NCBI GenBank assembly: GCA_905178155.1
Contig: CAJINV010000003.1
Location: forward strand, 9,927,979 to 9,991,978
DNA from: Amoebophrya sp. A120
Taxonomy: Eukaryota; Protista; Dinoflagellata
Reading direction: 5' to 3'
Length of the DNA stretch: 64,000 nucleotides
Shown here: in pieces, positions 17,400 through 59,910 of the stretch
How the letters are laid out: every line of letters begins with the position of its first letter
How positions within the stretch are numbered: the first letter of the stretch is position 1
The notes under the pieces: generated by a model
Seen by the model: the letters and a program-made list of their open reading frames with translations, nothing else
Databases searched by the model: none
What the model was told of the DNA's origin: nothing
Translations under genes and position numbers: made by a program

Positions 17400-20047
17400 G
17401 AAGTGAAAGTCGAAAGCAATTACCTGCGCCTGTCTGCATCCGAAGGCAAAAGGTTTTTCACTACTTTCATCGACTGGAGTGCAACTGAGCGCCACGACCG
17501 AAGAGGCCTGCGCTGAGAGAAAAGCAAAGTCACGCTGATTTTTCATTTGCACAGATTGCGCGTTCCCTAGAAATGTCTCTCGTGGTGTTCTTATCTTTCC
17601 GTCTCCGTGCAGTCCTGCTGTTCTATGTAGTTCTTCTCATAGTTCCAGTGATTGAATATGCTGCGACGTCGCGATGATCTCTCTCCTGTGTACAGGCCAA
17701 AAGACGAGAAAAAGAATCTGTCAAAGCGTGCCGCTGCTGCGCGAAAGTCGAAAATGCAGTAACCGCGGTAGTGCGTCTGTAGCAAGATGAAATTAACGAG
17801 GAAGATGTGATATGCGACACGCTACCACCTTTTCATGAGCAGTGCGCGAAAGCGGATATCAACACGTTTCCGAGGTAGTCACCCGATCCACGCAAGAGGA
17901 TCACGGTATGAGCGACTGATCGCGTTTGCAGTGCGTGTGTATTTTCGTAGACAAGCTGACACTCTTAAACCGAAGATGTTTTGGTACTGACCGGGGTTTA
18001 TACGGCGAGCGGGTCTGTGTGCGATTGGAGTCTGTCCAATAAAGTGGATCGCAGCCGCGTTGCCACACCCCAAGTAGGGCACTTCAGGGAAGCAGTGGAG
18101 ATTTTCGTCGCGAGGCCGGTATGTTTTATGTCGTGTCGTTCTTACGCGCCACAATGGCAAAAGAATGAATCAAGTCACTGGAATCAAGTTAATGTTAAAC
18201 GAAGAATCGAGTTGAACTAAAACAAGTTAGTCATGGATCCAAGTAAGGCGGAATGAATTGTGTGAGAACTTGGAGGCAATGGTTATGGAATCAAGGCGCT
18301 GTAGCAAAGCTCCGCGCCCAGTGTCTCTCCATATCCCGCCGCTCTCTGTATATCTCTCTCTACCTCTTTCTCTCCGTGCTCTTGTATCATCTTCTTGCTC
18401 TTCCGTAATTCCCATGACCTATGGGGCGGCGTTCGATGTCCTTGCAGTTGAGAAATAATCGCGGATGATAATGCGGAGGTTATTGGTTATGTTTCCCTCC
18501 CGGGGGCTTTTTCACTTTGTACGGGGGGGAGCTGCTTGCGCATGAGGTTACGCTTTGACTTGCACGACCCTCAAGCGCGCGTGCTCAGAGTCCGTCGCTT
18601 TCAGGCGCCCGGAAGTCAATTCCAACAGACCCAGATCCTTCATCATCAATTCGAAGACTTGGGAGGACCGCGGAAGGCTTTACCTCCAGCACCCTCCCCG
18701 GTTCTTTCATATCCGCGACTCTATGACCTTTCACCTCTTGGCCCTGCGAAAGCCTAGCTTTGGGAACACCGGGAGCTCTCACGTACGAGATTACTGGGGC
18801 TTTGCGAGGTGCAAGCGCAAGGCCCACCGAGCACGCGCGGCGACCGCCGTTCGGGATGGTTGCCTTGGCGCGCGCCGACTTAGTCACCTGCATTTGCCGC
18901 GCGATCCGATACGCGCCGCGGTTTGGCGCCGAAGTATGTCGGTAGAGGCCTTTGGTCATCTGTCATATTTTCGCTGGGGCCGGCTGCCATCTCGTGCCAG
19001 TTTGCGGAGGTCCTTTGCGCCACGCGAGCTGCCGACCAGCCGCCGTGCGCAAGGCAAGCTACGAGCGTCGTAAGTGGTCTAGCGCATGGGCTTGCGCCCT
19101 TCAAGTAAATCATGCGTGGCCCCTTTCAGTCTCTATCTCGAGACCACGGCGATGGCTTGCATTTCTGCGCTTCGCACCTTACCCCCGCAAAAGCCAGAAA
19201 AGTAGCTGCACTCACCGAGTGCGTCGGTTTCGCGAGTGTGCGTCTTTGCTGAACTTCGACACGCCCTTTCACGAGCGAGCGCGGGGGCTTCCCGGGGAGT
19301 TAAGTACTTTGGACCCTGCAGGAGCGGAAATATGCACAGTGCAGGCCTCACAGCGTCACTGTCTCGACATTTGACAGGATGATGCTGTCATTTGACAACA
19401 GCGTCACTGTCTCTTTATACAGGATAGATGATGATGATGATACCCGATGATACAGACGCCACCACCAAAGCCGTCGCATATGTCTTTCCGCTATAGGAGC
19501 CGGCCCCGCTACGCAGATGCTAGGAGAAAGCTTTACACTGGGCGAATCTGCTAGCTGCCCAGCCCATCACGAAGTAACGGCTTTGCATGCGCTACGCATA
19601 ATTCAGCGCCCGTTCGTGTTGAGAACATAACGCGAGAAAGTGGCGTTTCTTTGGATCACAGACACTGGCGCTGTGAAAAAATATTCATTGACGCTGAAAG
19701 TATTGCATTGAGTGACCAGCCAGAGTCTAGTTATTGACGTTTTCTAGCTCTGTTTTATAATTTTGAATGGCGGGGCCGGGAGTACAATGGGAAGACTAAC
19801 GTTCCCAATTCTGGACGGCCGCCAACGCTCTTGGATGAAAGTGCTTCAGGTACTGATGTTTTATTTATAGAAGTCGGAATATGGACGAAGTTGCATCACT
19901 TACTCCTCAGAGCGGCGGAAAAGTGCTGCTTGCTGTTTCGTGTGCTAGATCTTTCTTCTGGCTGATAGATACGTCCTCCACACACAAGAAAAAGAGCATG
20001 AGCTTGATGCTCTCCACCACGTTGCTCAAAATGTATTTTGGGAAGAT

Positions 20048-20213
20048 AAATGTATGCCCGGGCAACAACAGGCTAGCGAGCCTGTGAGTCTAGGCTGGGG
20101 GTGGTCGGGCGGTATTTTATAGGTGGCTCCGCCCCCACCAGTCTCTATACGGTAGCCGGAACTTGAGAAGACTCGTCAGAACAGCCCGCCGACTTTCGGG
20201 GTGGGATTTTGTT
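20048..20213 (+). repeat. Split direct repeat A1
   Basis: Identical by eye to 23633-23798. Confidence 0.95.
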
Positions 20214-20855
20214 CTTCTTCTCTTGTTCCCAGGGAGTAACGCCCCTGCCGTTGGTAGTAAGTCTCGTATCGTGGCTGGTCTGCAATGCGGACCAGTCTTT
20301 CGGCTCGTATCCGCATGTCGGATAGTACTCTCGTTTCGGCCACCATTGAGTGGAAATTTGTCTCGTTATTGTCTTCGCTTTGGCGACGGCGATTTTTCTC
20401 GGATATAATCGCTTTGTCACTACGTTGGCCTTGGGGACAACAGGTGGATTTCTCGGTCTCGCTCTGCGATGGGAGGAGGGGTCGTTTGGCGCTGGCGGTT
20501 CGAACCCGTTACCCTTGCGAACTTTCTCCCTGGTTAGAGCTTCGGCATATTTTTGAAGTTGCACCAGTGCAATTTGTCTTTGGCCCTCTTCTCCTATCGC
20601 TCTGCGAGACCGAGACTCGTCTGATCTGAATTGTGAAGCTCCGCGACTGCGTTTTGCAGTAAGCTCTTTGGAATCGCTATAGTAGAACCAAGCCTTACAG
20701 TCTTGGATTGGTCTGTATTTCCATTCTCGTTTTCCCTCTCCTTTCCACGAAACAGGGCACATGGGCACCGAGTCCTTTTATTTCTCAACCTTCGTATTTT
20801 GTCTTGTCTGGATGTAGTCTGGTATTCATATTTTGGCTAGGTTTCCGCTCTGGAA

Positions 20856-21908
20856 ATGTTTCATGTTTTTAAGAACTTTCAGAAACTGAGTAGGGAAATC
20901 AAGAGTCATGACCCCCCTCCGCGGGCGGAGCGGCAGCGCAGCGAGGTAGATAGGGTTGCGCGAGCTTTAGATGGCTCCACAGGGGGCGCATCTTCTACCT
21001 TCTCCTTTCCAGCTTCGTGTGAGTCTCGTAAAGCAAGAACCTCCGCGCAGATGAAAACTGCCTGCAGATTGGCTTCGGATCCTGCTGCGCTTTCGCAGTG
21101 TGTTAGGCTGTTGGGCGAGCTTACATCTTTGGCTTCGAGTAGTACGACGAAGTCGCAAGTTTTGAAGTATGAAAGAATTACCCGCTCCAGTGGGGCGGAG
21201 CCCTGGCCGGTTACTTACCGGACTATCGAGAACTTCATCGCCGTGGCCCTCGCCTCGGGCTACAAAACGTTTGACGATGATACCAGCCTGATTTTGAAGC
21301 AGGCGCGCAAGCAGGGCCAATTTTCGTTGACTGAAGTGGAGGAAGGGTTTGTTTGGTCATTGCTTGCGAGCCTTCGGCGGAAGGGTGTGTTCACTCACAC
21401 CCAGAAGTCCCCGGTCTTCAGATCGCACATCTTGAAAATCCCTTGGGCAGAGGATCGGGCGCAGCTCATGCTTGCTTTTCTTTTCGGGTTGCGGAAGTCG
21501 GAAGCGGCGCAGATTAATAGAACCATCAAGATTTTGTGGGGGCAGCATTCGATCGGGTTAGACCTCCGCGGGGCAACATTGAAGTCGAACAGCACTGCTG
21601 CCATTCGTGTCCAGTGTACGTGCGCCAGCCCTTTGGGCCGTGCTTCCTGTCTTCATGCCTATCGCGGGTATCTGGACAAAGTTGTGGGGATCAATGTCGA
21701 GCGTTTGCTCGATAAGTACAAGATGGAGACTACTACTCAGTCCTTGAGGATAGGAGTGCTGCTCACGCTTCTATCGCAGCAGTGCACTACTCTGCAGGTG
21801 ACTACCCGCCTTCGGTGGGGGTCGCCTGTTATGGTGCTACATTACGCACGCTGTAAAGGATTGCACGAAGTACCTAAAGAAGACACTTCGTGTCCGATCG
21901 CGCAGTAA
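20856..21908 (+). CDS. Tyrosine recombinase/integrase, 350 aa
   Basis: FGLRKSEA (Arg), TLKSN (Lys), TQSLRIG (HxxR with H>Q), LRWGS (Trp), LHYAR (Tyr); N-terminal core-binding-like segment KYERIT...PWPVTYRTIENFIA typical of DIRS-group YRs. Confidence 0.9.
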   Translation: MFHVFKNFQKLSREIKSHDPPPRAERQRSEVDRVARALDGSTGGASSTFSFPASCESRKARTSAQMKTACRLASDPAALSQCVRLLGELTSLASSSTTKSQVLKYERITRSSGAEPWPVTYRTIENFIAVALASGYKTFDDDTSLILKQARKQGQFSLTEVEEGFVWSLLASLRRKGVFTHTQKSPVFRSHILKIPWAEDRAQLMLAFLFGLRKSEAAQINRTIKILWGQHSIGLDLRGATLKSNSTAAIRVQCTCASPLGRASCLHAYRGYLDKVVGINVERLLDKYKMETTTQSLRIGVLLTLLSQQCTTLQVTTRLRWGSPVMVLHYARCKGLHEVPKEDTSCPIAQ

Positions 21909-22308
21909 ATCTCGCGGAAAAATCTCGCTGGTCCTGCAGATTTTTGGTCCTTGATGTGCACAAATTGGCTGGCTCTCTGTGGGAAAATGCTCCGCCCTGT
22001 TCTCCGCCTCAAATTCTTGGCTCTTGTTCCTGATCTTCAAATTTAGCACTCGTTCTTACTCGCCCTTGGTCTACATTTGGGAGCAGTACTCGCGTGAGAA
22101 AATGGCTGATGGCGCGGATCGGCTTCTTCGGCTTGCCTCGGTAGGCTTTTCGTTGTAATGCTTTTGCTTGGTTGTGATTTTTCCAATTCGCACAGGGATA
22201 GTCGACAGATCCGCACTTCGGATTTGTTATTTTTCTTTCTGGCAGCACACTAGTATCTACTTTTGCTTTCTGTAGGGTTAGGCTTCTTACTACTTCTTTT
22301 GGAACACA

Positions 22309-23139
22309 ATGCCTGACGCTTATGAAGATCCTCTCGAGCAGCAGGAGTCTCCGGCTCCTGAGGATCCCTTGCCTAAGGACCAAGATGAGAAGACGGCCGC
22401 CCTGGTAGCGGGTATGTTCACTTCCTTGTTGACGAAAGTCACCAAGGAAGCGGATGACGAGACGAAGGACCTGGAGGCCTGCCAAGCGCAGTGCGGAATT
22501 TGTGAAGATGTCGTGCTTCCGGCTAGCTCTTTTTCGGCGGTCCTGGGGTGTGTTAAGAAGCGCGGCGTCCAGTTCAAGGACGAGAAGGACACTATCGGGC
22601 TTTTGGGAGGAGTTCTACATGTGGGCAAGATGGGCATTGAGTTGGCGAACAGCCTCGGGCTCTCTTTGCTCCTGCGCTTTGGGAAACACCCGAACTGGAT
22701 CGCGCACTTCAGCACCATGTGGAAGGGCGCGGGGACTCTTGTTGTGGATAGTTCGCCGCTGTTGGGCGGCCCCAAGCCCTCCTCTATCAAGGAACCGATC
22801 GACGTTTACGCGCGCCGCGTCTGGGTGTGGTTGGTGACCTGTGGGATGTCGGAGCTGCGGAGCTTGTGTGCGCCTCCCACCTCTAACAAGCACGACCCGC
22901 CTCTGAAGCGCCCGCGCTGGGAGCCGGGTGCGCAATCGGGTCCGTGCGCGTTGTTCCTGCAGTATGGCTCTTGCCATCGGGGCAGTTCGTGCCAGTTCCA
23001 GCATAAGTCGCCGGATAGTTTGGACCACATGAAGAAGATTGTTTCCTCCAAGGGTTGGCGTTTCTGCCCGGAGGAAGCTTGGAAGAAACGTGACAAGTCT
23101 ACCGCTGGCGCTTCTTCTTCATCCTCTACGAAGAAGTGA
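22309..23139 (+). CDS. CCCH zinc-finger, Gag-like protein, 276 aa
   Basis: CALFLQYGSCHRGSSCQFQH (22945-23004) = C-x8-C-x5-C-x3-H; intronless ATG..TGA ORF inside the SDR element. Confidence 0.8.
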   Translation: MPDAYEDPLEQQESPAPEDPLPKDQDEKTAALVAGMFTSLLTKVTKEADDETKDLEACQAQCGICEDVVLPASSFSAVLGCVKKRGVQFKDEKDTIGLLGGVLHVGKMGIELANSLGLSLLLRFGKHPNWIAHFSTMWKGAGTLVVDSSPLLGGPKPSSIKEPIDVYARRVWVWLVTCGMSELRSLCAPPTSNKHDPPLKRPRWEPGAQSGPCALFLQYGSCHRGSSCQFQHKSPDSLDHMKKIVSSKGWRFCPEEAWKKRDKSTAGASSSSSTKK

Positions 23140-23535
23140 GCTCGTCCCTCGTGCCGGAAATTTCTTTTCCGCTTGCGTCCGTTGTAGGATCTATTTATTT
23201 TCCCGCTTCACAAATAGGACCAGTGCTAGTTGCTGCTGCATTTTGAAAAGATTTATCTTTGGGGACCTTCAGAGGCCACAAACCTGTCACTACCTGCTCG
23301 ACTCGAGATGTGTATGGTGTTCGAATTTTACCCGCAGGCCACTTTCATCTGCGGCGGTTTCTTCTTCGTTTCGGTACTGAGGTTTGTGTCGCTTTGTCAT
23401 TTTATTTTTCGGTCCGTCGTCGTTGCCGGCTACGCGCTCATCGATGGGGCGCACTGGTTTCCCAAATTCAGCTACTGGCCGCCAGCGTCTCAGCGGGTTC
23501 TTTGGGATGCTTCGGCGTGCCCAGCCTCCGCCGGT

Positions 23536-23798
23536 GGGGTAGGTGCTCCATTTGAGCGCCTCGACGACGCAGAGGGAGATAGCTCCCATCGAGCGATCAT
23601 CCATCGGGTGATCCGTCTGCGGTAACTGTATAAAATGTATGCCCGGGCAACAACAGGCTAGCGAGCCTGTGAGTCTAGGCTGGGGGTGGTCGGGCGGTAT
23701 TTTATAGGTGGCTCCGCCCCCACCAGTCTCTATACGGTAGCCGGAACTTGAGAAGACTCGTCAGAACAGCCCGCCGACTTTCGGGGTGGGATTTTGTT
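23536..23798 (+). repeat. Internal B1-A2 repeat junction (copy of the predicted circle junction)
   Basis: ...CTGTATA-AAATG-TATGCCC... joins the element's right-end sequence to its left-end sequence. Confidence 0.93.
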
Positions 23799-23919
23799 TC
23801 GCCCACCCTCCCGCCCTTTTTGGTTTTTCGTGTACTAGGTTACTACGGATGGGTCGCTAGACCTCGCGCCGCCTGGCGTGTGCTAGGTGAGACAGAGGTT
23901 TGAAATTATCTTCCATTGC

Positions 23920-24020
23920 GGGGTAGGTGCTCCATCTGAGCGCCTCGACGACGCAGAGGGAGATAGCTCCCATCGAGCGATCATCCATCGGGTGATCCGT
24001 CTGCGGTAACTGTATAAAAT
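23920..24020 (+). repeat. Split direct repeat B2
   Basis: Matches 23536-23636 except CATTTGAG vs CATCTGAG. Confidence 0.95.
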
Positions 24021-24865
24021 AACAGTAGAGATATGTCAGATGTTGTAGCAAGGTCGCCAACGTTTCAATCTGACCGCCTTTTTCTTTTTGCCAGCTACCG
24101 GGCAATAAGGTGCGCGCCAAATCCGAAGCGACTGGAGGAAGCGTTTTCTGACACAAAAAATGCGAATTTTTTACCGGCTGCTTGAGCTTTGTTATTATAT
24201 ATACTTGTTTGTAGCTAAACAGGCTCGAGTTCGAGTATCGATCACCGAGTGAAGAAACCACGCGGGGGAGCCGACAAAAGTGGTGCCCGTTTGAGGCTTC
24301 CAGAGCCCCAGCAGTTTCTGGTGATGTTGGATCTTCAAGAAGGGCCGCTAAAAAAGCCCTAGCGAAAAAGAGCAAGCAGGCCTGCATGCTATTGGCGCTA
24401 TTTTTGCCCAGATTTGAAAACTGCGAACGTGGCAACCGCGCGCGGCACTTTTTGTTGCTAGATATAGTTGTTGAAATAATGCGGGGCGACAAAACGCTTG
24501 GGCTAAGTCTTTCCGTCTTCTAATTACAAAAAGGACCGAGAAAGCGACTCACGCCAAAAAGCGAAGCTCGTCAATCCGAATGCTTCGGGGCTGATTTTGG
24601 GCCCACCATTTGGCCGCCAGGCGCGGAGGCTTAGCGCGCAGAGTCAATAGTTTTTGCGGGTTGAATACCAAAGAGCTTGCGAGTTGTGGCCGCGACTGTC
24701 GTCGACAGTCATACTGCCGGGGCTTGGGCGCACACAAAAAGCAGCAGGCTCCTTTAAGCCGGGCAGCCGCAACTGCTGGGACCGCGCAACAGGTGGCCGC
24801 CCCGGTTCCAGAATTTAGCCGCGCCCCAGGAAAAAAATCGCTCAGGCCTCACTACCGAGCTACAG

Positions 24866-30734: not shown

Positions 30735-31620
30735 CTCCGCAATGCCCTCGACCGGTAATGGCGCTTTGGACACGAGTGCAGCTGGCGATCAGCGAGGTCT
30801 ATCCTGTGCAAGAAGCACCACAAACAAAAATAATTGAAAGCAGGCACATCGTACTCCATCTGAAACTTCACACGTTCAAAGCTTCTGCGTTAGTCGTTTG
30901 CCTATCGGCGCCGGCACTTTTTTCTATTCTTCCAGGCGAAGGAATGAGTTGATCTAGGGAAGACTGCGAGCTTTTTTCCAGCGGATTTGAGTTGTTTGTA
31001 ATTCGCATTCTGGCGGTGGTGACTCGCTAGCTTCTTGTAAAGAAAGAAATAATTGGCGACGAGAAGCCGCGAGCAGTAGCACTTCCTGGATCTGTGCAAC
31101 GAGAAGCTGCGGAGCCAATAGAGCTGTTTGGTGTGCTGCTGTCACTGTGGCGTGCTTTTTACTCAGGATGGCGGCGCCCTGAAGGTTTCGGCAGCGTAAT
31201 CCAGCATTCGGCAGCGACGTCTGCGAAGGGGTGCAGTCAGCACCGTACGTTTCAACAAAGCAATTTTGCCAATAGCGCGAGCAGTAGCCCTTTTCCCGGG
31301 GTCGGCGCCGTATTCGGCAGCAACACCCCACTTGCCGACCACTTTTTGGCGGCTACGTCACTTGGTAGTAGCACAAGCAGCGGTATCGTGATAAAAAATC
31401 TTCCATCTCATACTCGAAGCGCAATGTGTGTAGCATTACCTGCGTCGTTGAAAAAATGCGGCCTCAATGGGCGTGATTCGTCTCCGGGAAAGACGAGTGC
31501 CGTTTTACCTCGGAGTATGGGGAAAGGGATTTTTTCCTTGTGATGCGCACAGGGTCGGCCGTGGAGAACCACCTGTTTGCACCTGTGCGAGGTTATCCAG
31601 GAGAAAGCGCATCGATACCA
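30735..31620 (+). CDS. Putative exons of an unidentified host gene
   Basis: GT-AG introns 30797-31046 and 31383-31552 join open frames: SSAMPSTGNGALDTSAAGDQR-EIIGDEKPRAVALPGSVQREAAEPIELFGVLLSLWRAFYSGW...SSTSS-GSAVENHLFAPVRGYPG. Confidence 0.4.
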
Positions 31621-41400: not shown

Positions 41401-42984
41401 TGAAAAACAAGAAAAAGAAATAGCACCAGAGCACGAACTGCAAAGATATAAAAAGAAGAGCCATGGCCAGAAGCAGCTTCGTCATCATCTATCCGAGTAG
41501 CTTCGATGTCTTCCTGATCTTTGGGAGTGTTGGCGCACTGCTACTGCCCAAATTACCAAGCCAAGAATACCGCGGCAAGTAAATGGCGAGGGCTGCAGAG
41601 CGACTACATCTAGTCTTTCGCTTTCGGGATCCTGTATATTTGGCGCATGAACATGCGCGACAGTTATATCTGGCGCATCAACATGCGCGACAGTGGATGC
41701 TTTCCCCCACCTATCGCGCTCTTCATGTTTTTCGCCAGACTGTGACTAGGCCACCACAGGCAAGGAAAGCTATTTGCTTTTGAGGCCCTCGCGGGCGGCA
41801 CTTTTATGCGCAGTTGCCTACTGCAACATCGCGCATGTTGCTTATCTTGCGCAATTTTTCCTGCAGCTGAAAGCTGCAGACACACAGCCTTGCTTGCTAT
41901 GGGTGTCCTTTTCTTTTGCAGTCCAAAAGTCGTTCATCTTGAGCCCTTGCGTTTTAAACTTTGCGTCTAACTTTTAGCTCTTGCTTTATTAGTTTTCCCT
42001 CCTAGTTTTCTCTCTTGGTTTTTGCTTTTTCATTTTTGTTCTTTTAACTTTTTTGTGTTTTTGAGCGTCAAATTGCTGAGCAATAGGCTGACCGTCAGAT
42101 GCTTACGCTTAGCAGGGGATAGATTTCTATGTCTAGCCCGGCAGTTTTCTTGCCATGAAGCGCCAAAAATTTCTGCCGGCAGTGTTGAAAGCTGTTGCGC
42201 GTTTTTCTACTTGAACAGAAATAAAGCGCGCGAGCCTTCTTGGCTTTGGCAAGATCTAAAATTGACAATGGCGAGCCAGCAAAAGTGGCGCCCTTCTGAG
42301 GCGCCCGCCGCATTCGTTCCCGGCGGTTTTGGACGCACAGAAGAGCGCTCCGTAAAACGAAAACGCGCGCAGAATCATCACAGCCGAACCGCGTGGCGCG
42401 GCCGCGGCTGCGGGGGAGAGCAAATAGGGAACCGCGGAAGCGGCCGCCTGGTCGGCGGGCGCCCATCCTGGGACGCTTTGCGCAAAGTGCAGCCGCAAGT
42501 TTCTGGGGCGCGAAAATGAAAAAGCGCGCCAGGCCCAGGGAGCCGCCCCGTCTGCAATTGGCCCGGGCGCCCGCCGTGCTTGGGCCCGCCCCGAAGCGCC
42601 CGGGCCGGCCCTGCGCCGTCGGGCCTGGTATTCGGGAAGGGACTCTGCAAATTTGCTGAAGTTGGCGACGTTTAGAAGTGGCCGCCACTCCACGCGGCGG
42701 GGCGTCCGCCATAAGGTCGGGGCGGCGCGCAGAAAGCGGCGCCCCGGCTGCGCCGGCAAGAAAATGGCAGCGGCCCCACTCCCTCCGCCCCCGCCGCTAT
42801 ATTTGGCCGGAGGGTGCCAGGGCTGCTAGAGTGCATCCAATTCACAGTGGGAAGGCAGCGCGTCCTGCTTGTAGCACTTCCCTAGCGGAGGGAGCATCAT
42901 GCAGGATTTGCTAGTAGGTGCGCCCATCCTGTGCAAAAGTATCGCACTCGTATAAATGCGACAGCTTTTTTGTGCTTGAATTAG

Positions 42985-44065
42985 TTCAGAAGTTGGTGGG
43001 AGGTTGTTGGGAAGTCGGCGGAGAAGTTGCGGGAAGCCGGTGGCGAAGTCGGTGCGGAAGCCCTTGCCGGAGTTGGTGCGGAACCAACCCCGTGAGAAGT
43101 GGCGGGGCGTGCTGGCATCGTCATCGCCCCGGCCGAGTGCCGCGGCACGTCACTCCGCCGCGGCGAGTTCTATCGCCCCCGCTGCTTGCAGCTGCAGCTG
43201 CAAGGGCTAGAAGGAATTGCGCCGGAGATAAATAGAAAGACGGCCACTGCAATCCTTTCCATTTGTCTGCAGCGCTGCTCGACCAGTTTGCGCGACGCTT
43301 CCACGCGCGAAAACGTACAGAAGAGGCGGCAAAAGTTGCGTCTGTGATGGCTGCACGCGCAGACGCCTCGCTGATGGTTGCGCGCGCGCGACGATGCGGC
43401 GGCGCACGCCGCAGGTGCGCGGGGGTTCTTCGCGTGTTATTAACCGCAGAGCTACGCGGAACCGATTAAAGTCAAGCAATTTTGCGAGTGGTAATAGTTG
43501 GGCTGTCCTTTCTTCTGCCAAAGAGCTCGGCTGTGTGCGTAAGCTACGCGGTTTATAGTATTTTCTTCTTCGACACTTCTCAGCAACTTCTCCACAACCT
43601 CTCCACCAACATCGCTACGAACACCGGACCAGCTTCGCGGCTTTTTAAAGGCTTCGCGCAATCAATTTCCGAGAGAAGGTCTGCGCTTTCAAATTAATTG
43701 CGTGACGCCCCCAAAAGGCCACTCGCACGAGCCCGAAGGCCTTCAGCAAAAAAGGGCTCCGGGGCTCCCACATCGCTCGCATTTGCGCGGGGGTGCGGCC
43801 GAACAAACTGACTCGCGACTGCCTGCGCACGCGGCCACGAATCGGGAGCCGTGAAACCCATGAGACACCGCCCGCATCCGCATGCTGGTAGAGAAATGCA
43901 AACGGGCGCCCCTACGGTTTAAATCCGCGCCAATTCCCAGAACAAACCCAGCCGCCGACCCCCGCCAACTTCTCAACAGCTGGGAAGTTGGTGGAAAGGC
44001 TGGGGAGAAGCTGGTGGGAAGTTGGTCAGAAATGCGCGAGAAGCTGGCGAGAAGTTGGTGAGATG
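42985..44065. repeat. Degenerate ~12-bp GAGAAGTTGGTG-like repeats in both orientations
   Basis: Runs at ~42985-43100 and ~43980-44065 (+); inverted CAACTTCTCCAC runs at ~43575-43610 and ~43965. Confidence 0.5.
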
Positions 44066-45086
44066 GTCGATGCAGAAAAAGGCGGGGTCTATACGAGTGC
44101 GATGCTTTTGCACTGGATAGCGCCGCTTTGGTGGCAATTTAGCTCGAGGGAGCACGCCAAGAAAAGTCTCTGGCCCCGCGCGGAGCGAGCGCGGGGGCCT
44201 TTGTGATGTGGCGCTTCCCGGTGCTGGCGGTCTCCGTGGCCCCTCGCGGAGAAACTAGCAGGCGGCCGGCCACAGCGCTCTCGTCGGCACGAGCCAAAAA
44301 AATAGCAGCCGGAAAAGAAGCGGCGGCGTGCCATTTGCCGCAAAGGCGAAGAGGTTACTTTGCTGGATACGTGGCGCGCGCCCCAGTAGTTGCCCGCAGC
44401 GCTGGCGCGGTCGCCGGGGGGCCGGGTAAGTATCGGCGGGCCACTTACTTTGCCGGGGCGGGCCGTTCTCCCGGGCGGCCACGCTATCGCCACCCCATCG
44501 GCCGGCGGGAGTGCCGTCCGCGCGCGGGCTCTTCGGCCCAGGCCAAGAGGCCGGCGCCCTTTCTGCGCTCCCCCCCCGAATTCATACGCGGGGCGCGCTC
44601 GCTTTTGCTTCGCGCGGGTTCGCTTTCGGGCTCACGGCGACTGGCCCGCCCAAAGGGCTCCTACGGAAGCTGATTCAGCTATTTTCCCGCGAGCCCACCG
44701 AGCGCGGCCGCGCGCCTCGCCCCGGGGGCGCTCGCGAGTCGGTAACCGCCTTGGGACCGCGGGCCCTCTCGCGTCTTGGGACGTTGCCCCTCGGGGCGGC
44801 CCCACGGCCCGCGCTTGGCCTGCGGGCCGCCGCTTCTTTGTGTTGCTTGTGCGCGCTGGCGGAAAACTTCGCAGGGGGCCCGGCCTCGGGGTTTTCGCAT
44901 ATGTCGTGCGCGCTGGCCGAAGCTTGCCGGTGCTCTCTATGCACGCGGCGCAGTTCCTTGCCCGCCTCTCTTCATACTTTGCCGGCGGTCGCCCGGGCTA
45001 GATACGACGAGGGAAGCACAGCGCCAATAGATCGAGATGGTGCCTGTACATGCTCCAGTATCTATCTGGCTGTAGTGCTACTGCGA

Positions 45087-49280: not shown

Positions 49281-52200
49281 ATGGCACACAAGTTTCTATC
49301 CTCTGTTCCATCCATTTATAAGGAGGGAGCGGGGGAAGACAAGGGAGATGTGGCGCGACTGCAGGCCTTCATCGGAGCTATCGCCATCGGAGATTTGGTG
49401 AAGTCCACCCTAGGTACTCCAGCTTATATACTCAGTGCGAAGTGCTGCAAAAGCGAATACGAACGACGACGTCGTGCGTCCGCGTGCTTGATGGTCGTGT
49501 GTGTTTATGTTGTCAGTACCGAAAGAAGTGGGAAGGTCACTGCTTCATGTGAACTGTTAGTTCCCGCTACATTCTTCTTTATCCATTTTGTGAATGTTGT
49601 AGACATCGTACCAAAATCAAAGGTCCCAAGGGAATGGACAAGATTCTGCAACCTCTGCCAGGCGAAGGTGCCAGCAAAGAGACGACTGTAACTAACGACG
49701 GCGCCACTATTCTTTCACGTGTCTGTATGAGGGTGCACGGTTCCGCCTTGTCATTTGTCATGCAAAGGATATACCTTTGCGCGCCTATTTGCAAAACAAA
49801 AGTTGTAGCAGCTGAGTTATAGTACTATCATCAACACTGCTTGGCTGTTTCATGTACAGGAGCAGCGGACCACGTGGAATGGCTAAGGTGGAATGGCGCT
49901 TGTATCGGACCAAGTAGAGGCAAATGGTGGTTACGGAGCCACCTACTAGTACTATGCCACGCAGAGAGTTCCCGTGTGCCGCTTTTATTTCTGTTTCTGG
50001 CCATGCCTTCCAAAGGAAAGGCAAAGGGAGGGGCACTTGTGCAGTCTCATAGTCTGGGTCGACAATCCTAGCGCAAAAATTCTGGTGGATATCTCCAAGT
50101 CGCAAGACCAAGAGTGTGGCGATGGTAATTTCTGTGGTGATGAAATTTTCTTTGCATTTAATTCTATCTTGTCACGCTTATCTCGCTTCTCGCTCGCTGT
50201 TGAAGACGTGCTGCTACCATCAGATGAAGCACAGGAATTTTGTGTACTGCACAGACATCAAAGTAGTGGCATGTAGTAGCGTACTTGGTAGTGTAGCTTT
50301 GCACGACCGTTGTCATCCTGTTAAATTTGTGAAGCGACTCAATCACAGGAACGACGTCGGTTGTGGTTCTTGCGGCAGAGCTTTTGCGACAAGCGGAGCA
50401 ACTTGTGCAGCAGCGCATGCACCCACAGGTGATAATCAAAGGATACCGCATCGGCCTGGAAGCGGCGCGCAAGCGACTCGAGGAAGTCGCTTTTGACAAT
50501 GGTAGGCTCTTTGGCATTTACTTCTATTCATGTGCTCGCTTGCAAGTTCCAGTATTGGGCTCCTGTCGGCCAAGCTGGCGAGCAATATGGGGGCGGGAGA
50601 TCACGAGCAAGAGCATCTCGTCCTGCTTGGAAAAGTGATGTTCATTATGACCGACGTCTCGAATTTGACACTGTGACAGACTTCCGTGTCGAATTATTTG
50701 TTGCTACAGGAAAGGACGAAGCCGAATTGCGTGCAGACTTGATCAAAATCGCGGAAACGACTTTGTCTTCGAAGCTATTGAAACACGAGAAGACGCATTT
50801 CGCCACTCTAGCGGTTGACGCCATCTTGCGTTTGAAGGGAAGACCAAATCTCGACTACATTCAGGTACACGTATCGATTGCTTGCCTTGAAACAAAATGT
50901 GCGCCGAATAAATGGTATTTTGTCGCGTCACACCGGAGTCGCAATAAAATTGCAGGTTTTGAAAAAGGCCGGAGGTGCAGTAAAAGAGTCATATCTGGAA
51001 CCGGGTTTCATTCTTGAAAAACGCATCGGTGTCGGCATGCCGAAGAAGAAAGAGAATTGCAAGGTACACAGCTTCAGATTCGTGTTGGTGTGACGCAGAA
51101 CAGGAAAGTTGAGAAATGGATCACGAGCGACTATGCATCTGAAAATGGTAGCATGCGATATTTATCTGCATGCTGCGATGGCACGAGAAATGGCAGGCAG
51201 TATCTTTCCATCCGCAATGTTTCTTACGTGTCGTACCTACTATAAAAGTTGCGGACTGGTGTCGCAATATAAAAAAGGTCCTGGTGGCCAATACGCCTAT
51301 GGACTCGGACAAGATTAAGATCTTTGGCAGCCGCGTAAAGGTTGAGTCTCTGGAGGCTATGGCGGAAATCGAACGGGCGGAGCGGGAAAAGATGAAGCGC
51401 AAGTGCGACAAGATCGTGGCTACGGGGTGTAATGTTTTTATTAACCGTCAGCTCATCTATATGAAAGCGTCCGGTGGAAAGTCGTTCGTTTTGAAACATG
51501 TGCGCTGTGTGATTTTGCCGAGCAAGGTCTTCATGACAAAGACAAACGCTTGGCTCTTTACACTAAACAGTACGTATGTTGACGCGTTAGCATGATTTGG
51601 CCTACACTGGCTGCGTAGAGTCGCTGTGTCTAACATGTGCCGCCATGATCCATGACCAAGCATTTGCGGAAAGGCTTCCTGGCCGTCAGCGGAAACACGC
51701 CCGGTAGATTGCGTTTGTGATCGCGCTTGGACTAGTAACATGAAAAATATTTCTGTTTTGACGATTTCCCACCTGTCAGTTCCATAGTTTACAACTACCC
51801 GGAGGAACTGCTGAAGCAGGGCGGCATTACGTGCATCGGTATCGTCCAGGAAAATCCGCCCTCCACATACTCAAAGGGATTTGCCATCCGTAATTTGTGG
51901 ACAAAGTCACTTTGCGACAAAGCGAAAAGGACAAACTCTTTAGATTTGCTCTGCAGGCAATAGCTCATGCTAAGTAGTCCGGGGAGAGCAGATGGTTCCT
52001 GTCATGCTGAAGAAACCCAGCACGTGACTGCAATCCGGGACTCATATCCGCATTTCATCAGGTGTAAGAGGAAACGACTTTCACAAGTCAGAGGTACTGG
52101 TGTATAGAGGCGCGGTCTGCATAAGGCTTTCCTCTTCATGGGGTGGCGGTTTTTCATTTTGACAGTCAAGCATTCGGATTTTGACGGTACCGAGCGGCTC

Positions 52201-55200
52201 GCGGCCGTTCTAGGTGGCGACATCGTCAGCACCTTTGACGACGCCGAAAACATAAAACTAGGCACTTGCGAACTGATCGAGGAGGTTATGATCGGGGAGG
52301 ACAAGGTAATTCGCTTCAAGGGGTGCGCAGAAAACGAAGCCTGTACTATCGTGCTTAGGTAAGTGCAATAAGTGCCTACATACTTCTGTGTGGCACACTT
52401 TCTATAACGTGTTTTATTCTCGAGACTGTTCTTCTTCACCGCAATTTCCAGCCGTCTTGTAACGGTAATTTTTTGTAGTATAAGTTTTCTTCTGTGCCGG
52501 ACCTGGACAACTGGGCAACAGGAGGATTCTCGTCTGCTTGTAGCTATAATTATCCCCCTAAGCGCTACTATCACAAAAGCAGAAGCAATCTCGCACCTAC
52601 AATTCTTCTAGGGGTGCCTCCACGCACGTGTTGGACGAAGCGGAGAGGTCGCTGCATGACGCGCTGGCGGTTTTGTTCCAGACCGTGACGCAAGATACCC
52701 GAGTGGTGTGCGGGGGCGGGTGCTATCCTGTGTAAGAACGTCCTCACCCCATATGAGTGCGTCATGTAAGTTTGCCTTGAGATTTGGCCTTGAGTTTCGA
52801 ACCCCACGCGCCCCCGCGGTTTGCCCCGCCGAGTCTCCACTGCGCTAGCGGGCCGGGCGGGTCCGTAGTGCGGAGCGGGTCTATTGGGCTACCGGACTGG
52901 CGGGACAGCATCAAAGGCTGGCAGGTAGTGCTACAGTGTGTCTTTGCGCGAGCACGTCGGACTTCGTTAGGGCCTTAGGCCGCGGGGCGCCCGGCCCTCG
53001 TCTTTCGCACTTCTGATCGTGGGACGGCGACGAAGTACAGGAGCAGGGCGAAACGTCATCAATCGGGGCGCCCCCCTGCCTGCCGCTCTCCGATGACGTC
53101 TAGGATTGGAGGCACAGGAGCATGCGCCAAGCGCCCCCCCTGCGATGCATATTCTTGCGGCGTGTGCCACTTTGTACTGCTGTACCCAGTTACCGCCACG
53201 GCCGCCGCGTCTGTTCGACCTGCGAAGACACTCGCAGCACGCCTGCCCTCACGCTTCAGGGGCCCCGTTTCGTTCTGCATGCGTTCGCTCTCATTTCGTA
53301 CGCCTCGCCTACCCGTGCTCATCTCTCAGCACAGTCCGCGCGAATGCCTTGGCCTAAGTGCGAGCTTTCAATGCGTAGAAGACGTTTTTGCGATTCTTAA
53401 TTTACTTGTGAGCATGTTGTTTTCAAACTAGTGAATACATAGTAGTGCTGTCGACGTAGTTTTTGTTTTTATTCTCTTTTATTTTTAGCTGGTGGCCCCA
53501 GAGCTGTAAAGCGCCGTGCCTGCACTCACGTTCGATGGATTTTCCAATTGCGCCGTACGAAGTGCGTCGGGTGGTCGGAAGTGTACTGGATTGAGGTGCA
53601 TTGATTCTATTGGTTTAGTGTCTTTTAAGTGCCACCGGGGCAACCTGCCCGTAGATTTTCTATGTTGTGCCGTACCTATCACTATAAGCTGGAGGCTCTG
53701 ACATGCGGGCGGGCCACGCAAGGAGAACTACACTGCGGACCCAGGGTTGTTGCGCGCATCTCACAAAGCCCGGAATTTGTGTAGCGGAGGTCGCAGAGGT
53801 GGCACCTTTACTGAGGGGTGGGTACGTTTTTGCACATGGTAGCTGCTGCGAGATGGCTATGTCCAGGGCGGTAATGCAGACCGCCGCGGAGGTCGGCGGC
53901 AAGGAGTCCGTTGCTGTTGAGGCTTTCGCAAAGGCGCTGGTCCAGATTTATCCCGCAGAAAAGAGCTAGCGCGCCGCGTTTGCAATGGAAGAAAATACAC
54001 AGAGATCGAGAAGTAGCGCGCTGCTTCAATACACAACGAGTTCTTTTGTATGCCCTATTCACGTCCGAATGTGTGAAGCCTACTTCATCTGTTGAGAATT
54101 GAAAAACAGGCCAGCTATTCCGCTGGATCGGGCAAGAAGGTGGAGCACAGCCGCAAAGGTCAAAAGACTGGGGTAGCGCGCCAGAAGAGACAGAAAGAAC
54201 CAGGCGCGGACCTCTCGGAGGTCGGGCCTGCCGATTTCTGCTGCAACAACTGGCCCGGGGCCGGCTCGTCCTGCGGGGGTCGGGTTGATCTGGCGGAGCC
54301 GGCTAGATCTCTTAGCAGTGCGAGCCGGAGCCGCCACGCGAGACCGCCGGACCTGCAGCCCCCCAGCGGTCCGTCCGGATCGTCCGGACTTGCCGCAGTC
54401 GGCCGCCGGGCCTAGCGGCGGCCGCCTGGGCTGCGATGGAGAGTTTGGCACAAGGAGGAACCAGGTACCCTACCGAACCAGGGACCAGGTACCCTGGGAC
54501 CACGTACCCAGAAAACACCCCGGGTCTGAAAACGCCGGACCGGGGTATCCTGTTCCGTGGGTGCCTACAAGAGCTGGGCACCCTACAAAAAGGCGCACCG
54601 GGGGCCCTCGTCCGGCCACCGCTACCCACATCCGGCCATCTACATCTGCGTACCGGGTGCCCACATCCGGGCACCCGGGTACGGAGATTCGGGCAGCCGG
54701 TGCCCAGTTGTGGACACCCCGACGTGAAACCGCTCGAGTTTTCGCGTGACTTGCTTTTTTCAACTCAAAGCTGAAAAGGTGTCCCCATCCGCGCATCCAC
54801 ATCCGGATACCCGGGCGCCCACATCCGGCCGGGCACCCGGGTACCCAGGTACCTGGTCCCAGGGTACCTGGGCACCTGGGCACCTTGCCCCTGGGTACCT
54901 GGTCCCTGGGTACCTGGTCCCTGGGTACCTGGCCCCTGAGTACCTGGCTCCAGGGTACCTGGTTCCAGGGTGGCTGGTCTCGGGTACCTGGTCCCGGGGG
55001 GGCACCTGGTTCGGTAGGGTACCTGGCCCCAGGGTACCTGGTTCCTACCTCTACCGGAGAGTTTGTCGGAGGGGCGCGTTGGAGCCCATAGGGGTTTTGG
55101 TTCCGGGGCGGGCCCGCCAGAGCCCGTCGGGCCAGCCGGCGACCGCTTCGCTTCCCGAGGCGTGAGCCGACCGGACCTCGCATCCCGCCGGCCGCTCTTC

Positions 55201-58200
55201 GGCCGGCACTCGCGGGCCCGTCATAGTGAAGAGGCGGCGCGCTGTTTCCGGGCTGACCCTTCGAGGCTCCATCGGCCCATTTGCTGCGCAGCGTCTGCGA
55301 GCCCGCTCATGGTTGTTTTCGCAGCGCCCTGCCCTGCTTGGTTTCCTGCTTGCAAATGCGGACCGGCGCAGTGGCGTGGCCATCACAGCCGGCGGAAGCG
55401 TTCGCTCCTGCCGTGTGCGCCCCGGCAGGTTCCTAGCTGCACTTCCGGCAACCACGCCGCGACAGAGAGACCCCAGATCGGCCAGCGTCCGGGCTAGAGG
55501 GGTCGCATCATGCCAGGGGGCGGGCTTGTTTTCTGGCCCCGGCTGCCGACCGATGCGCCCCAAAGCCACCGGGGGCCGACCGCCGGGGGGCCCTAGCAGG
55601 GCGGCGGGTGCAGGTTTTTGTTCTCTCGCGCGGGTTTCGGTTTTGCCCGCTTTTCTCCAGTTCGCCCTGCTAGGGCAAGGCGTGGTCTCTCTGGTTCCCG
55701 TAAAGCAAAAGGGCGCAGGCGGTCAAAGGGGGCCGTGGCATGGAAAAGAGCTCGGGGGCACAAAAGATCTCGGGGAAGCCAGCGAGTGGGGTGGCGTCGT
55801 CTTTGCGATTTGTTTTTCTTCTGTGACCAAGAAATACCAGGCGCAAAAAAAAAGAAAGAGCACGAGCGACACGGGGACAAAAAGAGAAAAAAAAGAAAGA
55901 CGCGGGCCCCATGCTCACAAAAGAACAGAAGCCCCGACGAGGGTTAGTTAGCAGCATGGCCCGCAGAAAAAAATACAAATAAAAGAAAGAGCCAGAGCGA
56001 CGGAGAGAAAAGAGGACAGAGGACCAGGCTAAAAGATGACACATGTCCCAACAAAGTTAGACCGCAGCGAAGTGCGAGGAGCTCCGTGCTGATCACTGAG
56101 CTCGGTGGCGTCGTCCGTTCTGGAAAGCTTTCCTGCGTCCGCAAAGAAGCTTGCTACTGGGCACGGCTTGGGGCCTCTTTTTCCTGTTCGACTGACACAG
56201 AACCCAGAGGCGGCGGGTTTTTGGGTCAGGTATGTCGGGTGGTTGAGGATCCTCGCCTGCGCCTAGGCCGGGATCCTCTGAACATTGTGTGTGAGGGTGG
56301 TAGCACGCGACGGACCCCAGTCGGATGTCCCTTCGCTGCTAAAATGGGTGGCGTTGCGATGTCTGAGATGCCTGGCTCTCAGTGCAATCCAGTGCAGACA
56401 TCTTGCCTCCAGGAAATTTAGGCTGATCGATGGCCGTTTCTGGCTCGCCTCGGCATCTAGAGACAGAGGCCGAAAAGGCTCGCTGCGCTTGTTTTTCTTC
56501 TTTGTCAGGATTGTAGCAGCGCTTGGCTTTAACTCGGGAGCTTTCGATGGTTTGATCGGTGGATGGGAATTGCGCTTAATCTCCTGAACACTAAGGGTGG
56601 ACAGGTGGCAACCCGGGTGGACGCCAGGCGAGTGCTCGCCTCGCCCGCTACTAAAACGGGCTGCGTTCGGACATCTGTGACGCGGCTGGCGACCAACCCA
56701 CTCCCGGCGATTACCCCCGAGGAAGTTAGCGCACCTCTCTGACGGTGCCTGGCTCGCCTGATAGCTTTCCTCCACTACCAAAGAAGCGCGCGGCGGTCGC
56801 GTTGTTTTTCTGCTGTGTTGTTCGTTCGCAAAAGCGACTGCAGCCCGCCAGGGTGCGGCCCATTTTCCGCAGAAGGCCAAGCGTAGTAGGGATAGGCTTC
56901 GCATTCGCCCACGTACCCATGGACGCACTAGCGGGGGCGCCGGCTGTATGCAAATACCGCGAGCCGCCCCGGCGCCGGGGGGCGGTCTAGAGATGACTCA
57001 TCTTGGTGGTGGGAGGCGCAACAGGCCGGGGCCTTGCTTTTTTTCCGTTTGGCCAGCGGGGCAAGCCACCAAGGGCGGGCACGGGTTTAGGGATTTGGGT
57101 TCCCTAGGATGGCCGTAGCAAAGTGTGAACAGCTTCGCGCTGATCACGGCGCTTGGTGGCGTTGGGGTTCCCGCTTCTCTCCGGCTGCGCGCGAAAGAAT
57201 TGGCCGGGCTTTTTTTTTACAGTATTGTATTCGCGTTGTGCGCGAAACTTCTCAAAATGGGGAGGCTATTCGAGGGGCTTCGGCATGAAGAGCCCCCCTG
57301 TTTCAATTACAGAGCAGGCCCGTTCCTTTCAACAACCTCAATGCGTGCGGCCCCCGAGCGGCGGGCAGGGGGCTTCGCCTTGCTGTGCGCTTTGCGCCCG
57401 GGTGGCGTCGGCCCGCCCGCGGTAGTTCGGGATTACGCACGTGCGGGCTTGTTGTGCGGCCCGCGGCGCCTCCTCCGCCGTGGCGGACAGCTCAGGCTCG
57501 GCCACTTTTGTGGGTGGGCAGGCCCCCCCATCGTCGTCCGCCTTCGCTCGGACCGCCGCGATCAGCGTGTGCGTTTTCTTGTGGTAAATGACCCCCGGCG
57601 GGGGGGCCTTGCTAGCTACCTGCCGCTCCACTGCCTGCTTGACCCGCGGCGGGGCGTCGTTGTGCCTGCGCCCTTGAGACGGTCTCTGTGGCTGCTTTGG
57701 CGGGGGCGCGAGCGCCGCCGCAAATTTCTCCTCCGTGGCCTTTATTTTACTGCTTGGCGCGCATATGGATGAATGCCAGGCGGGTCGATGTATGGCTGTC
57801 GGAAGGTGCCCCTCCTCCGGGGCCGAAGATATGCAAAGGCCCAGCCAAGTGCGGCGGACTTGCCCCCGAAGCCACAAAGAGGAGACGGCTGGCCCCAGTC
57901 CGTCCGCTGCGCAAATCTCTTTCCAAAAACGGGGCGGGGAAGGCCGCAGGGGCCATGGCCTTGCTGCGTAGGCCTCGCGCCGGTTCTGGTCCCCGTGCGA
58001 AGGTGCTGCCGCTGTGCAAAAAACTGGCCCGGCTATCCCCGGCCGCCGGGCTCGCAGGCCGCCGCCGCTCGCTCTCGCTTTTTATGAACCTAGACCAGGG
58101 CAGCAGATCGCCCCCCGGGTGCCCGCCGCTGGCTGTGCCGCTCCCCGGGGCCAAAGGTATGCAATAGACCAGCGAAGCGCGGCGGGCAGACTTCGCACCC

Positions 58201-59910
58201 GCGCCCAAGGGCTCGCAGCGCAGCGACGCACCCAAACGAAGAGCCCCCCATCGGCGAAGCTTGTCGGGGATGGGTTTGGGGGCACCAAACAGACCCCAAG
58301 TGCAGGGCGGGGCGGCGGCGCATGCCGATCGCGGAGCAACTACAGGAGAACACCGCGGGGCGCCCCTACGTCAAACATAAGAAGGCACTGCCGCGCAGCT
58401 AAGAATAAAAGCAGCGCCCTCGGCGCATTGGCCGCGGGTAGCAAACGGAAGGCCGGCGCCTTTAGAGGCCCGAGACAGACCCGAGCCCTTCTGGTTGGCC
58501 CGGTGGATCTTCCGGGCGGCGAGAACATCAGGCCCGGCCCGCGGCAACTCTTCGCACTGCCTGTGTGCGGGCCCACCCAGCCCTTTACTCCCCGCCGGCG
58601 CATGGTCATACTTGCGAGGCCCGCTGCTCTTGCTGCCGGGCCTGGGGGAAATTCACACAAGTGCTGCCCCCGGGAAGGCTTCAGGCACTTGGGCGGCTCG
58701 TCCGCGCAGGTTGTCAAGTTGGCCCTAGGGCGCCGCTGCTCGTTTTTTGTTTTAGTACAAAAGCCGCCCATGTCAGACGATCTCCTCCGCCTTGCTCATG
58801 CGTGCGCAGGTCTCTGAGTGCTTGCGCTTCTTTTGGGGTTTAGGGTCGAACGTTCCCAGCACCGCTGGAAGCACGGAGCCTCAAAGGAATGCACTCCCGG
58901 AAGGATTCGAGCGCTTTTTCAGCGGTTGCCTTTGTCCTTCTTGTTTTGCTGTCCCTCTTTCCTCGGGCCCTACTGGCGTTAAGCAGTTTTTTCTTTGCGG
59001 ATGATCCGCCCTCTGTTTTTTATTTCGTTTTTTGTTTCTAGTCACCGCGAGCGCAAATCTGCACATGGCGACGTGAGCATGAAAATGAGCTTGGCGACCT
59101 CCCATCCACTACTACGGGCTGCGCTTTGCCGTCACTTCTTCTTTCGCCCCCATCTCCTTGTCTCCGTCCCGTCCCGGTCTCCATCCCGGTCCAGCGGCCG
59201 TCGCAGCAGGGTTGTAGGGTTTAGAAATGTTTCGGGTTCCTATGTTGACATTAGAATGCGCGAGAAAGGCAATGGCCTTGCCCAGACAGGACAAGTGGCG
59301 CTGCCCTGCTGCTTATTCCAATTTGCCCGCTGCGGCGGCTATTGTTGGCAAATTCGGCGTGCTAGCATTTTAGTGCAGAATAAGAGTCCGATGATTCTTA
59401 GCGAAAATGCCGGCTTCGACGCTCAGGAGATAGTGGGTGAGCTCAAGAAGTCTCATGCGACCGGCAAGGCATTCGCGGGGATCAACGTGATGACGGAAAG
59501 CGTCGCGGACATGCGGCCGTTGGGCATCTACGAGTCGTATCGGTCGAAGCTCAGTGGGCTTTGCTCTGCAGCCGAGGCAGCGGAGCAGGTACCCACGTAT
59601 AAAGTCTGTGCAGTTGCTGCGGCGCATGCATCAATCAAATAAAATAGGTTTGAAAATAATGAGTTTGCATTTGGTACAAGGTGAAGTGCGCAACTTTTGC
59701 TGTAGCTTAATGCGCCGGAAGTTATTGTAGTGTTGTTCTGCTGCCCATTTCGTGTAAAGGTAAACATGCTGCAGGTGCGCTGTTTCAATATTTTATTAGT
59801 TCTACCGCTAATTCGAGAAGCGGAACCGATATCGATTGCATTTACTTCGACAGGTGATCCGCGTCGACGACATCATCCGGAACGCACCCAGACAGCGGCA
59901 AGGCATGTAG
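49281..59910 (+). CDS. CCT2: T-complex protein 1 subunit beta (chaperonin CCT/TRiC beta), 13 exons, 536 aa
   Basis: Exons 49281-49413, 49623-49724, 50056-50124, 50349-50501, 50710-50864, 50956-51063, 51278-51458, 51791-51838, 52169-52358, 52612-52722, 53846-53947, 59387-59588, 59854-59910 total 1611 nt with consistent phases. Motifs [101 protein letters not shown] and VIRVDDII are those of the beta subunit. Confidence 0.96.
49725..50055 (+). mobile_element. Non-canonical intron 2 of CCT2 (introner-like), 331 nt
   Basis: GTCTG|TATGAGGGTGCAC...GTGCAGTCTCATA|GTCTG; perfect 5-nt direct repeat, 11/13 inverted repeat; removal restores ILSRVWVDNP. Confidence 0.85.
51459..51790 (+). mobile_element. 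Non-canonical intron 7 of CCT2 (introner-like), 332 nt
   Basis: ATCTA|TATGAAAG...TTCCATA|GTTTA; inverted repeat 51460-51485/51761-51786 (19/26); no GT donor at the junction; restores RQLIYNYPE. Confidence 0.88.
51839..52168 (+). mobile_element. Non-canonical intron 8 of CCT2 (introner-like), 330 nt
   Basis: ATCGG|TATCG...TTGACA|GTCAA; weaker stem (GAAAATCCGCCCTCC vs GGGTGGCGGTTTTTC); only GT..CA removal restores the conserved IEH. Confidence 0.78.
52723..53845 (+). mobile_element. Non-canonical intron 10 of CCT2 (introner-like), 1123 nt
   Basis: GGTGC|TATCCTGTGTAAGAACGTCCTCACCCC...GGGGTGGGTACGTTTTTGCACATGGTA|GCTGC; 21/27 inverted repeat; restores VVCGGGCCEM. Confidence 0.88.
53948..59386 (+). 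mobile_element. Non-canonical intron 11 of CCT2 (introner-like, inflated by nested repeats), 5439 nt
   Basis: AGATT|TATCCCGCAGAAAAGAGCTAGCGCGCCG...CGGCGTGCTAGCATTTTAGTGCAGAATA|AGAGT; 21/28 inverted repeat; restores [14 protein letters not shown]. Confidence 0.88.
54453..55050. mobile_element. Foldback/MITE-like element with 15-bp GGGTACCTGGTCCCT subterminal repeats, nested in intron 11
   Basis: Left AGGAACCAGGTACCCTACCGAACCAGG is inverted relative to right CCTGGTTCGGTAGGGTACCTGG...GGGTACCTGGTTCCT; tandem GGTACC units at ~54840-55045. Confidence 0.7.

Follow-up and report, generated by a model that had tools for sequence, protein, structure and literature searches.

A tyrosine recombinase element and the non-canonical introns of CCT2 in Amoebophrya sp. 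A120: probably two separate mobile systems

The window described here, a 64,000-nucleotide (nt) stretch of the Amoebophrya sp. A120 genome (assembly GCA_905178155.1, contig CAJINV010000003.1, positions 9,927,979 to 9,991,978 of the forward strand), carries a tyrosine recombinase (YR) element and a CCT2 gene that is interrupted by five non-canonical introns. An earlier note on this DNA had proposed that the introns are cargo of the recombinase, with which they would share terminal motifs and a crossover register. It identified the parts correctly (a circle-type junction in the YR element, 5-nt repeats at five non-canonical introns that are spliced), and all 13 motifs that it quoted lie where it placed them (AAATG-TATG at 20048, TATA-AAATA ending at 24021, TATA-AAATG-TATG at 23629, and the five pairs of intron ends). 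Our reading of their relationship differs. The introns are probably decayed insertions of an integrase-like cut-and-paste transposon that duplicates 5 base pairs (bp) of its target, and the YR element a mobile system of its own. Our conclusions rest on the window itself, two mapped read sets, protein searches and published papers. The CCT2 gene is laid out as follows, with the 5-nt repeats given as left/right copy.

49281..59910, + strand: CCT2 gene, 13 exons, 7 GT-AG and 5 non-canonical introns
49725..50055, + strand: non-canonical intron 1, repeat GTCTG/GTCTG (5/5), inverted ends 16/25
51459..51790, + strand: non-canonical intron 2, repeat ATCTA/GTTTA (3/5), inverted ends 18/25
51839..52168, + strand: non-canonical intron 3, repeat ATCGG/GTCAA (2/5), GT..CA boundary fixed by an RNA-like contig
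52723..53845, + strand: non-canonical intron 4, repeat GGTGC/GCTGC (4/5), inverted ends 19/25, 5' end multi-copy
53948..59386, + strand: non-canonical intron 5, 5.4 kb, repeat AGATT/AGAGT (4/5), inverted ends 18/25

The spliced CCT2 product of 536 aa is identical at 536/536 residues to the annotated A120 protein GSA120T00015368001 (P0126). Run X3, whose RNA label is a guess, covers the exons and leaves bins inside introns 1-3 and 5 empty, and its contigs are treated here as RNA-like. Each of the five introns has inverted ends in which 16-19 of about 25 bases are matched, and is flanked by a 5-nt direct repeat; 18 of 25 repeat positions match (P about 1e-6 against 25%), and 5 gives the best total score among repeat lengths 3-8. 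Spliced and non-canonical, with inverted ends that start with TAT and a direct repeat of 3-5 nt, these introns have the features of A120 introner elements. In the same strain, Farhat 2021 (PMC7789003) describes inverted repeats that start with TAT, followed by seven variable bases and then As, together with 3-5 nt boundary direct repeats and N-T donors, T occupying intron position 2 in all nine predominant boundary types (Table S4). Because the CCT2 introns agree with these boundary types and with the TAT-start inverted repeats, they belong to a known intron class. The available text and supplement text of Farhat 2021 name no mover, contain neither 'recombinase' nor 'DIRS', and give no fixed 4+1 register.

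This register, meaning the position within the 5-nt repeat at which the message is joined, was constrained by two kinds of evidence. The protein fixes intron 3 at 4 (E317, conserved in 75/75 homologs), limits intron 5 to 4-5 and intron 2 to 1-5, and allows any value for introns 1 and 4. The RNA-like contigs place intron 3 at exactly 4 (51838 joined unambiguously to 52169), intron 2 at 3-5, intron 4 at 2-5 and intron 5 at 4-5, with any value allowed for intron 1. The earlier claim that 4+1 is the only register restoring conserved CCT2 residues at all five introns was therefore too strong: 4 is the sole value common to the five, but a single intron, intron 3, sets it.

Read depth bears on the age of the introns. 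The 5' end of intron 4 is repeated in the genome (depth 455 versus 43), whereas depth over introns 1-3 is flat at 85% identity. The lack of close copies of introns 1-3 in the DNA run suggests that they are old, which would have given their repeats enough time to decay. Introns 1-3 share lengths near 326 nt, but the weak alignment of their bodies (z up to 3.4) is too little to group them as one family.

Two further elements with intron-4-type ends lie elsewhere in the window.

42920..44124, no strand assigned: element with intron-4-type inverted ends (22/25), ends at 42925-44119, perfect GCGCC/GCGCC repeat
30795..31175, + strand: intron-4-type element (18/25), ends at 30800-31170, repeat AGGTC/GCGGC (2/5)

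Both were found with a weight matrix built from seven arms of the window, of which two were off register by one base; it returned 37 matches versus 7-12 in shuffled sequence, an excess that is partly circular. A blind scan of the window for terminal inverted repeats (TIRs) gave no excess (232 matches versus 290-309 in shuffles), and another gave 1160 versus 397-441, a noisy result in which repeat-rich regions were unfiltered. Removal of the 371-nt element at 30800-31170 joins an open frame, and a further TATC-start arm lies at 31384, downstream of the restored frame, so that 30730-31400 is, judged from its frames and arms, probably an unannotated gene with non-canonical introns. The element at 42925-44119 is built in the same way, and nothing points to a host gene around it, although RNA was not applied there. 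Together with the CCT2 introns these form a comparison set of seven intron-type elements, in which splicing was seen for the five CCT2 introns only. Across the set, 16-22 of 25 bases of the inverted ends match, 12 of 14 arms begin with TA or TG, and two of seven 5-nt repeats are perfect, with 25/35 positions matched (71%, P about 1e-8); none of the seven is a very young copy that can be read at both ends.

Several side observations concern these introns and their gene. The first base past the right inverted end is G in 6/7 intron-type elements (50052, 51787, 52165, 53842, 44120 and 31171). In four CCT2 introns it completes a TAG or CAG that lies three bases ahead of the true 3' end, and it may either signal to the splicing machinery or belong to the element. 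A second A120 copy of CCT2 (P0008, P0127; runs X1 and X3) differs from the window copy at 49281-54000 by 11 amino acids. Its DNA is missing non-canonical introns 1-3, apparently also intron 5, and the first five of the GT-AG introns; it is likely a retrocopy. The frame of this second copy breaks after IVLRGA into Leu-Ser, which, going by the protein, would fit a later gain of an N-TATC introner. A 15-nt tandem array lies at 54844-55042, inside intron 5. Among the contigs listed, all of them assembled, there was no ATA-N5-TAT joint for the introns.

The YR element is a young, intact-looking element with the following parts.

20048..24021, + strand: YR element, layout A1-[YR, CCCH ORF]-B1A2-B2, no reverse transcriptase (RT); left end AAATG-TATG, right end TATA-AAATA
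20048..20213, + strand: repeat A1, 166 nt, identical to A2 (166/166), multi-copy in the genome
20856..21908, + strand: open reading frame (ORF) 1, tyrosine recombinase of 350 aa, Cre-like fold, single copy at >=88% identity
22309..23139, + strand: ORF2, presumably gag-like from its position, weak CCCH zinc finger match
23536..23636, + strand: repeat B1, 100/101 identical to B2
23629..23641, + strand: internal B1-A2 junction TATA-AAATG-TATG, the predicted circle junction
23633..23798, + strand: repeat A2
23920..24020, + strand: repeat B2

A Pfam search of ORF1 gave no match, and a structure model built on a 44-sequence alignment (pLDDT, the predicted local distance difference test, 86.4) matches Cre recombinases (Foldseek E 5e-5). 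The residues R213, K243, R298, W321 and Y330 are present and conserved in the family; the sole departure from the R-K-HxxR-H/W-Y set is Q295, where 36/43 relatives have H. The CCCH match of ORF2 has E 2e-4, under the Pfam cut-off. Among the four element ORFs scanned there was no RT match, and the sole YxDD-like word sits within the YR. The missing RT makes the element at most a non-autonomous member of the split-direct-repeat YR retrotransposons. The family comprises 90 representatives at E <=0.001, with named members from Amoebophrya A120, AT5.2 and Ameob2; YR and CCCH are joined in one predicted protein in three named members, and the pairing is seen in AT5.2 and Ameob2. None of the named reference YRs of Ngaro, PAT or VIPER was among the search matches.

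The A1-[ORFs]-B1A2B2 layout, the YR and a zinc-finger gag-like ORF recall Ngaro, PAT and VIPER elements as described in the available parts of PMC8547959 and PMC4157794. The element differs from these in having no RT/RNase H or methyltransferase, in the order of YR before gag-like ORF, and in its CCCH finger. It resembles DIRS1 (PMC3266345) in its probable integration over a short identical A/T-rich word and departs from it in its direct repeats and in ends that match at only 11/25, with no inverted terminal repeats. In literature other than subscription papers we found no description of an RT-less YR+CCCH element; only Gozashti 2025 connected Amoebophrya with tyrosine recombinases, and nothing connected Ngaro with CCCH. 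By its layout the element may be a new form of the split-direct-repeat type.

In the DNA runs the depth over the element ORFs equals that of the flank (45.6), as for a single copy, but rises to about 350-2060 at the termini, which indicates that shorter or diverged relatives carry the same A and B ends. One other copy has a right end of TATA-AAAT followed by T, and among contigs with different left flanks three align from 20046 and one from 20045. Taken together, this right end and these at least three alternative left flanks suggest that the core of the element is fixed as AAAT; the left-flank letters of the other copies and 20 further loose contig ends were not displayed, so AAAT is inferred on the left side. 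The simplest reading would be recombination across a fixed AAAT word, comparable to the identical 3-bp word of DIRS1. Crossovers at any point from 0 to 4 within AAAT yield the same product, and so the 4+1 register that had been claimed for the element reduces to 'at most 4' and gives no evidence of its own. X3 contigs have zero depth on the left flank and so do not place the element inside an intron; they also have no depth over the YR and CCCH ORFs, which, as contigs record presence only, is no evidence of silence. A metagenome scan returned one locus of 1293 nt without the element ends. Separately, an internal hairpin region at 20451-20615 is multi-copy (depth about 1260) despite the single-copy ORFs.

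A120 carries at least three YR copies, and a second one lies in the window.

14334..15038, + strand: second YR of the same family (31% identity), 5'-truncated, HxxR intact

It sits between 2.1-kb direct repeats (12242-14332 and 15343-17399, 87% identical) in a hairpin-rich region, in which nine 27-bp palindromes of the form AGTATTGA-N11-TCAATACT are found at 8711-15752. These have 11-bp arms and a 5-bp variable centre, are unlike the intron or element ends, and, as far as their symmetry goes, look like recombinase or dimer-binding sites.

How, then, might the introns have arisen? We favour a mechanism in which an integrase-like DDE transposase would insert TAT...ATA elements with a 5-bp target duplication, and splicing would cut one base upstream of TAT and four bases downstream of ATA, restoring the message exactly. 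It would be the splicing machinery that sets the intron start at one base ahead of TAT, and under a perfect duplication any fixed cut within the 5-mer would restore the message. The five duplicated bases on the intron side would then drift, producing the present mismatches. The YR element, in turn, would be copied through RNA with RT supplied in trans, close at the B-A junction and recombine over AAAT, likely integrating as a circle at this fixed target. The TAT/ATA shared by the two systems would then be a coincidence or a convergence on A/T-rich ends. The movers of both systems are what we infer here. Consistent with target duplication, the best-matched inverted ends (42925-44119, 22/25) carry a perfect repeat, and transitions make up 6 of the 10 repeat mismatches, near the 62% seen in a local repeat pair. 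Integrase-related DDE transposons have suitable ends, with TA..TA or TNT..AYA termini in IS3EU/GingerRoot and IS481EU and duplications of 4-6 bp; the target-site duplications (TSDs) of Ginger2 are 4-5 bp. A 6-bp duplication, as for IS3EU, can be dismissed, with length 6 scoring 1/6 in six of the seven elements.

Published surveys also bear on this mechanism. According to the available parts of Gozashti 2025 (PMC12130899), whose counts cover 48 of 58 A120 introner families, 39/48 families fall in the TIR DNA class, and 0/58 have DIRS or Crypton as their final class; the best peptide match of family 5 is DIRS, and family 93 has an automated CryptonC label. Family 38, with near-identical copies and homology to the integrase of a long terminal repeat (LTR) element, is listed as 'Ginger, 5-bp TSD, TA/TA termini'. 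The TA/TA termini, 5-bp TSD and long inverted ends of family 38 and the TIR families resemble those of the CCT2 introns in form. The TSD weight of Dataset S2 does not equal left-right identity (true TSD families range from 0.56 to 0.83) and was not used.

A number of points weigh against the DDE transposon. Farhat 2021 reports, in the text available, no transposase in A120, and we saw no autonomous DDE transposase in the material examined here, to which the whole genome does not belong. The text of Gozashti 2025 states that no catalytic domain overlaps the homology of family 38, and that this family lacks Ginger termini and TSDs. If drift affects a single copy only, 10 mismatches in 35 positions are many (P 0.015 at 13.5% divergence, 0.48 at 27%); all three position-1 mismatches read exon A to intron G, a bias that plain decay does not predict; and the cores group according to end type, RTCNR for introns 1-3 and G-S-N-G-C for the intron-4 type, as expected of a core that is carried along. 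Finally, exact TAT/ATA arms surround a 5-nt core in the element junction as in the introns, for which the naive chance is 3e-4 to 6e-3.

Most of these points also favour the proposal that TAT...ATA introners are non-autonomous cargo of the YR family, excised or copied into circles with an arm-N5-arm junction that would integrate at partly matching 5-mers through a 4+1 crossover, later retraced by splicing. This proposal could also draw on the register, which is 4 in intron 3 and no more than 4 in the element, and on the several YR copies of A120, including the second YR with its intact HxxR. Precedents exist in the available text of the papers concerned. Tn1549/Tn916 (PMC5871717) has 11-bp inverted ends around a 5-7 bp crossover that needs no core homology; CryptonS (PMC3212892) has TATGG termini and 5-6 bp repeats, although a single fixed word accounts for most of these and TIRs are absent from Cryptons; and for Polarella glacialis, like Amoebophrya a dinoflagellate, a DIRS/Ngaro-like introner is listed (PMC12130899). 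The introners of P. glacialis and of Cryptons, however, splice at GT/GC/GA-AG and carry either long direct repeats or no TSD, with no TIR cargo bearing variable 5-nt cores.

Direct comparison of the element with the introns speaks for two systems. Beyond TAT, the arms differ: those of the element match each other at 11/25, versus 16-22 of 25 in intron-type elements, whose 25-bp inverted repeats with a TAT-N7-AAAA consensus are missing from the element, and their likeness to intron arms ranks only in the top 12% and 43% of 901 TAT sites. The shared terminal grammar that had been proposed therefore shrinks to the common TAT start, and two CCT2 introns end in GTA and ACA rather than ATA. Blastn of the element against the seven intron-type elements gave no match below E 0.04. 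Their cores also behave differently, as all seven intron-type cores differ, whereas that of the element looks fixed, and position 5 matches between left and right in 6/7 intron-type elements and is the mismatch in the element. The 71% core match rejects homology-free coupling of the Tn1549 kind. The visible multi-copy partners of the YR share its A/B ends and not the intron ends, and its Q295 departs from the conserved H. AT5.2, a strain that has canonical introns (PMC12005148), carries both the YR family and the YR+CCCH pairing, and family 38 is listed with a 5-bp TSD. With ends, homology, core, AT5.2 and family 38 all unfavourable, the claim of the introns as cargo of this YR is unsupported, though it has not been refuted; we regard it as unlikely, and the link from recombinase to introns as weak. 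We are similarly doubtful of its broader form, in which an RT-less YR family would drive the tens of thousands of A120 TAT...ATA introners, with a U1-less spliceosome retracing the crossover and core words inherited down families.

The introns might alternatively owe their ends to neither enzyme, but to a route such as the reinsertion of hairpin introns at the RNA level or the action of a nuclease that has escaped recognition, with a U1-less spliceosome imposing TAT and the 4+1 register and thereby filtering insertions. Published observations on A120 fit such filtering, as U1 was not detected and T stands at intron position 2 in the nine predominant boundary types, and most A120 introner families are without an assigned mover (PMC12130899); in CCT2, the four informative introns share one register in the frame of the gene. 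However, it is usually a staggered cut in DNA that leaves inverted ends together with a flanking repeat of fixed length, and the element at 42925-44119 has this anatomy outside any evident gene. We consider this route improbable. The decayed DDE insertions described above remain our preferred explanation.

The window has some further features. On the - strand, 1-8250 is a long ORF-bearing segment that runs off the window, with a 1228-aa frame containing collagen repeats, and is possibly an LTR element; A120 introner family 4 likewise lists a collagen match in the part of PMC12130899 available. A diverged 550-nt repeat pair (66%) lies at 42264-42806 and 48487-49030. Tandem arrays of 21, 114 and 15 nt are also present (46460-48060, in addition to the 15-nt array in CCT2 intron 5).

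The mover of Amoebophrya introners matters in that the genome paper, as far as its text is available, found no A120 transposase (PMC7789003), and young introner copies are expected to differ in their ends according to which of the two candidate enzymes made them. Were the YR model true, introns would be gained en masse through a recombinase whose target words vary. YR-derived introners are already on record in the available text of PMC12130899 (P. glacialis family 3, with 1709 copies and described as 'VIPER/Ngaro-like', and two Crypton families), so a YR-driven origin would be a variant, though a large one; the passages of the Roy et al. preprint available mention neither Amoebophrya nor recombinases. 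Two results hold under either reading. One is the position of the splice, a single base ahead of TAT and supported by RNA-like contigs, which bears on how a U1-less spliceosome chooses its donors. The other is the YR+CCCH element without RT, with a protein pairing that recurs in other Amoebophrya.

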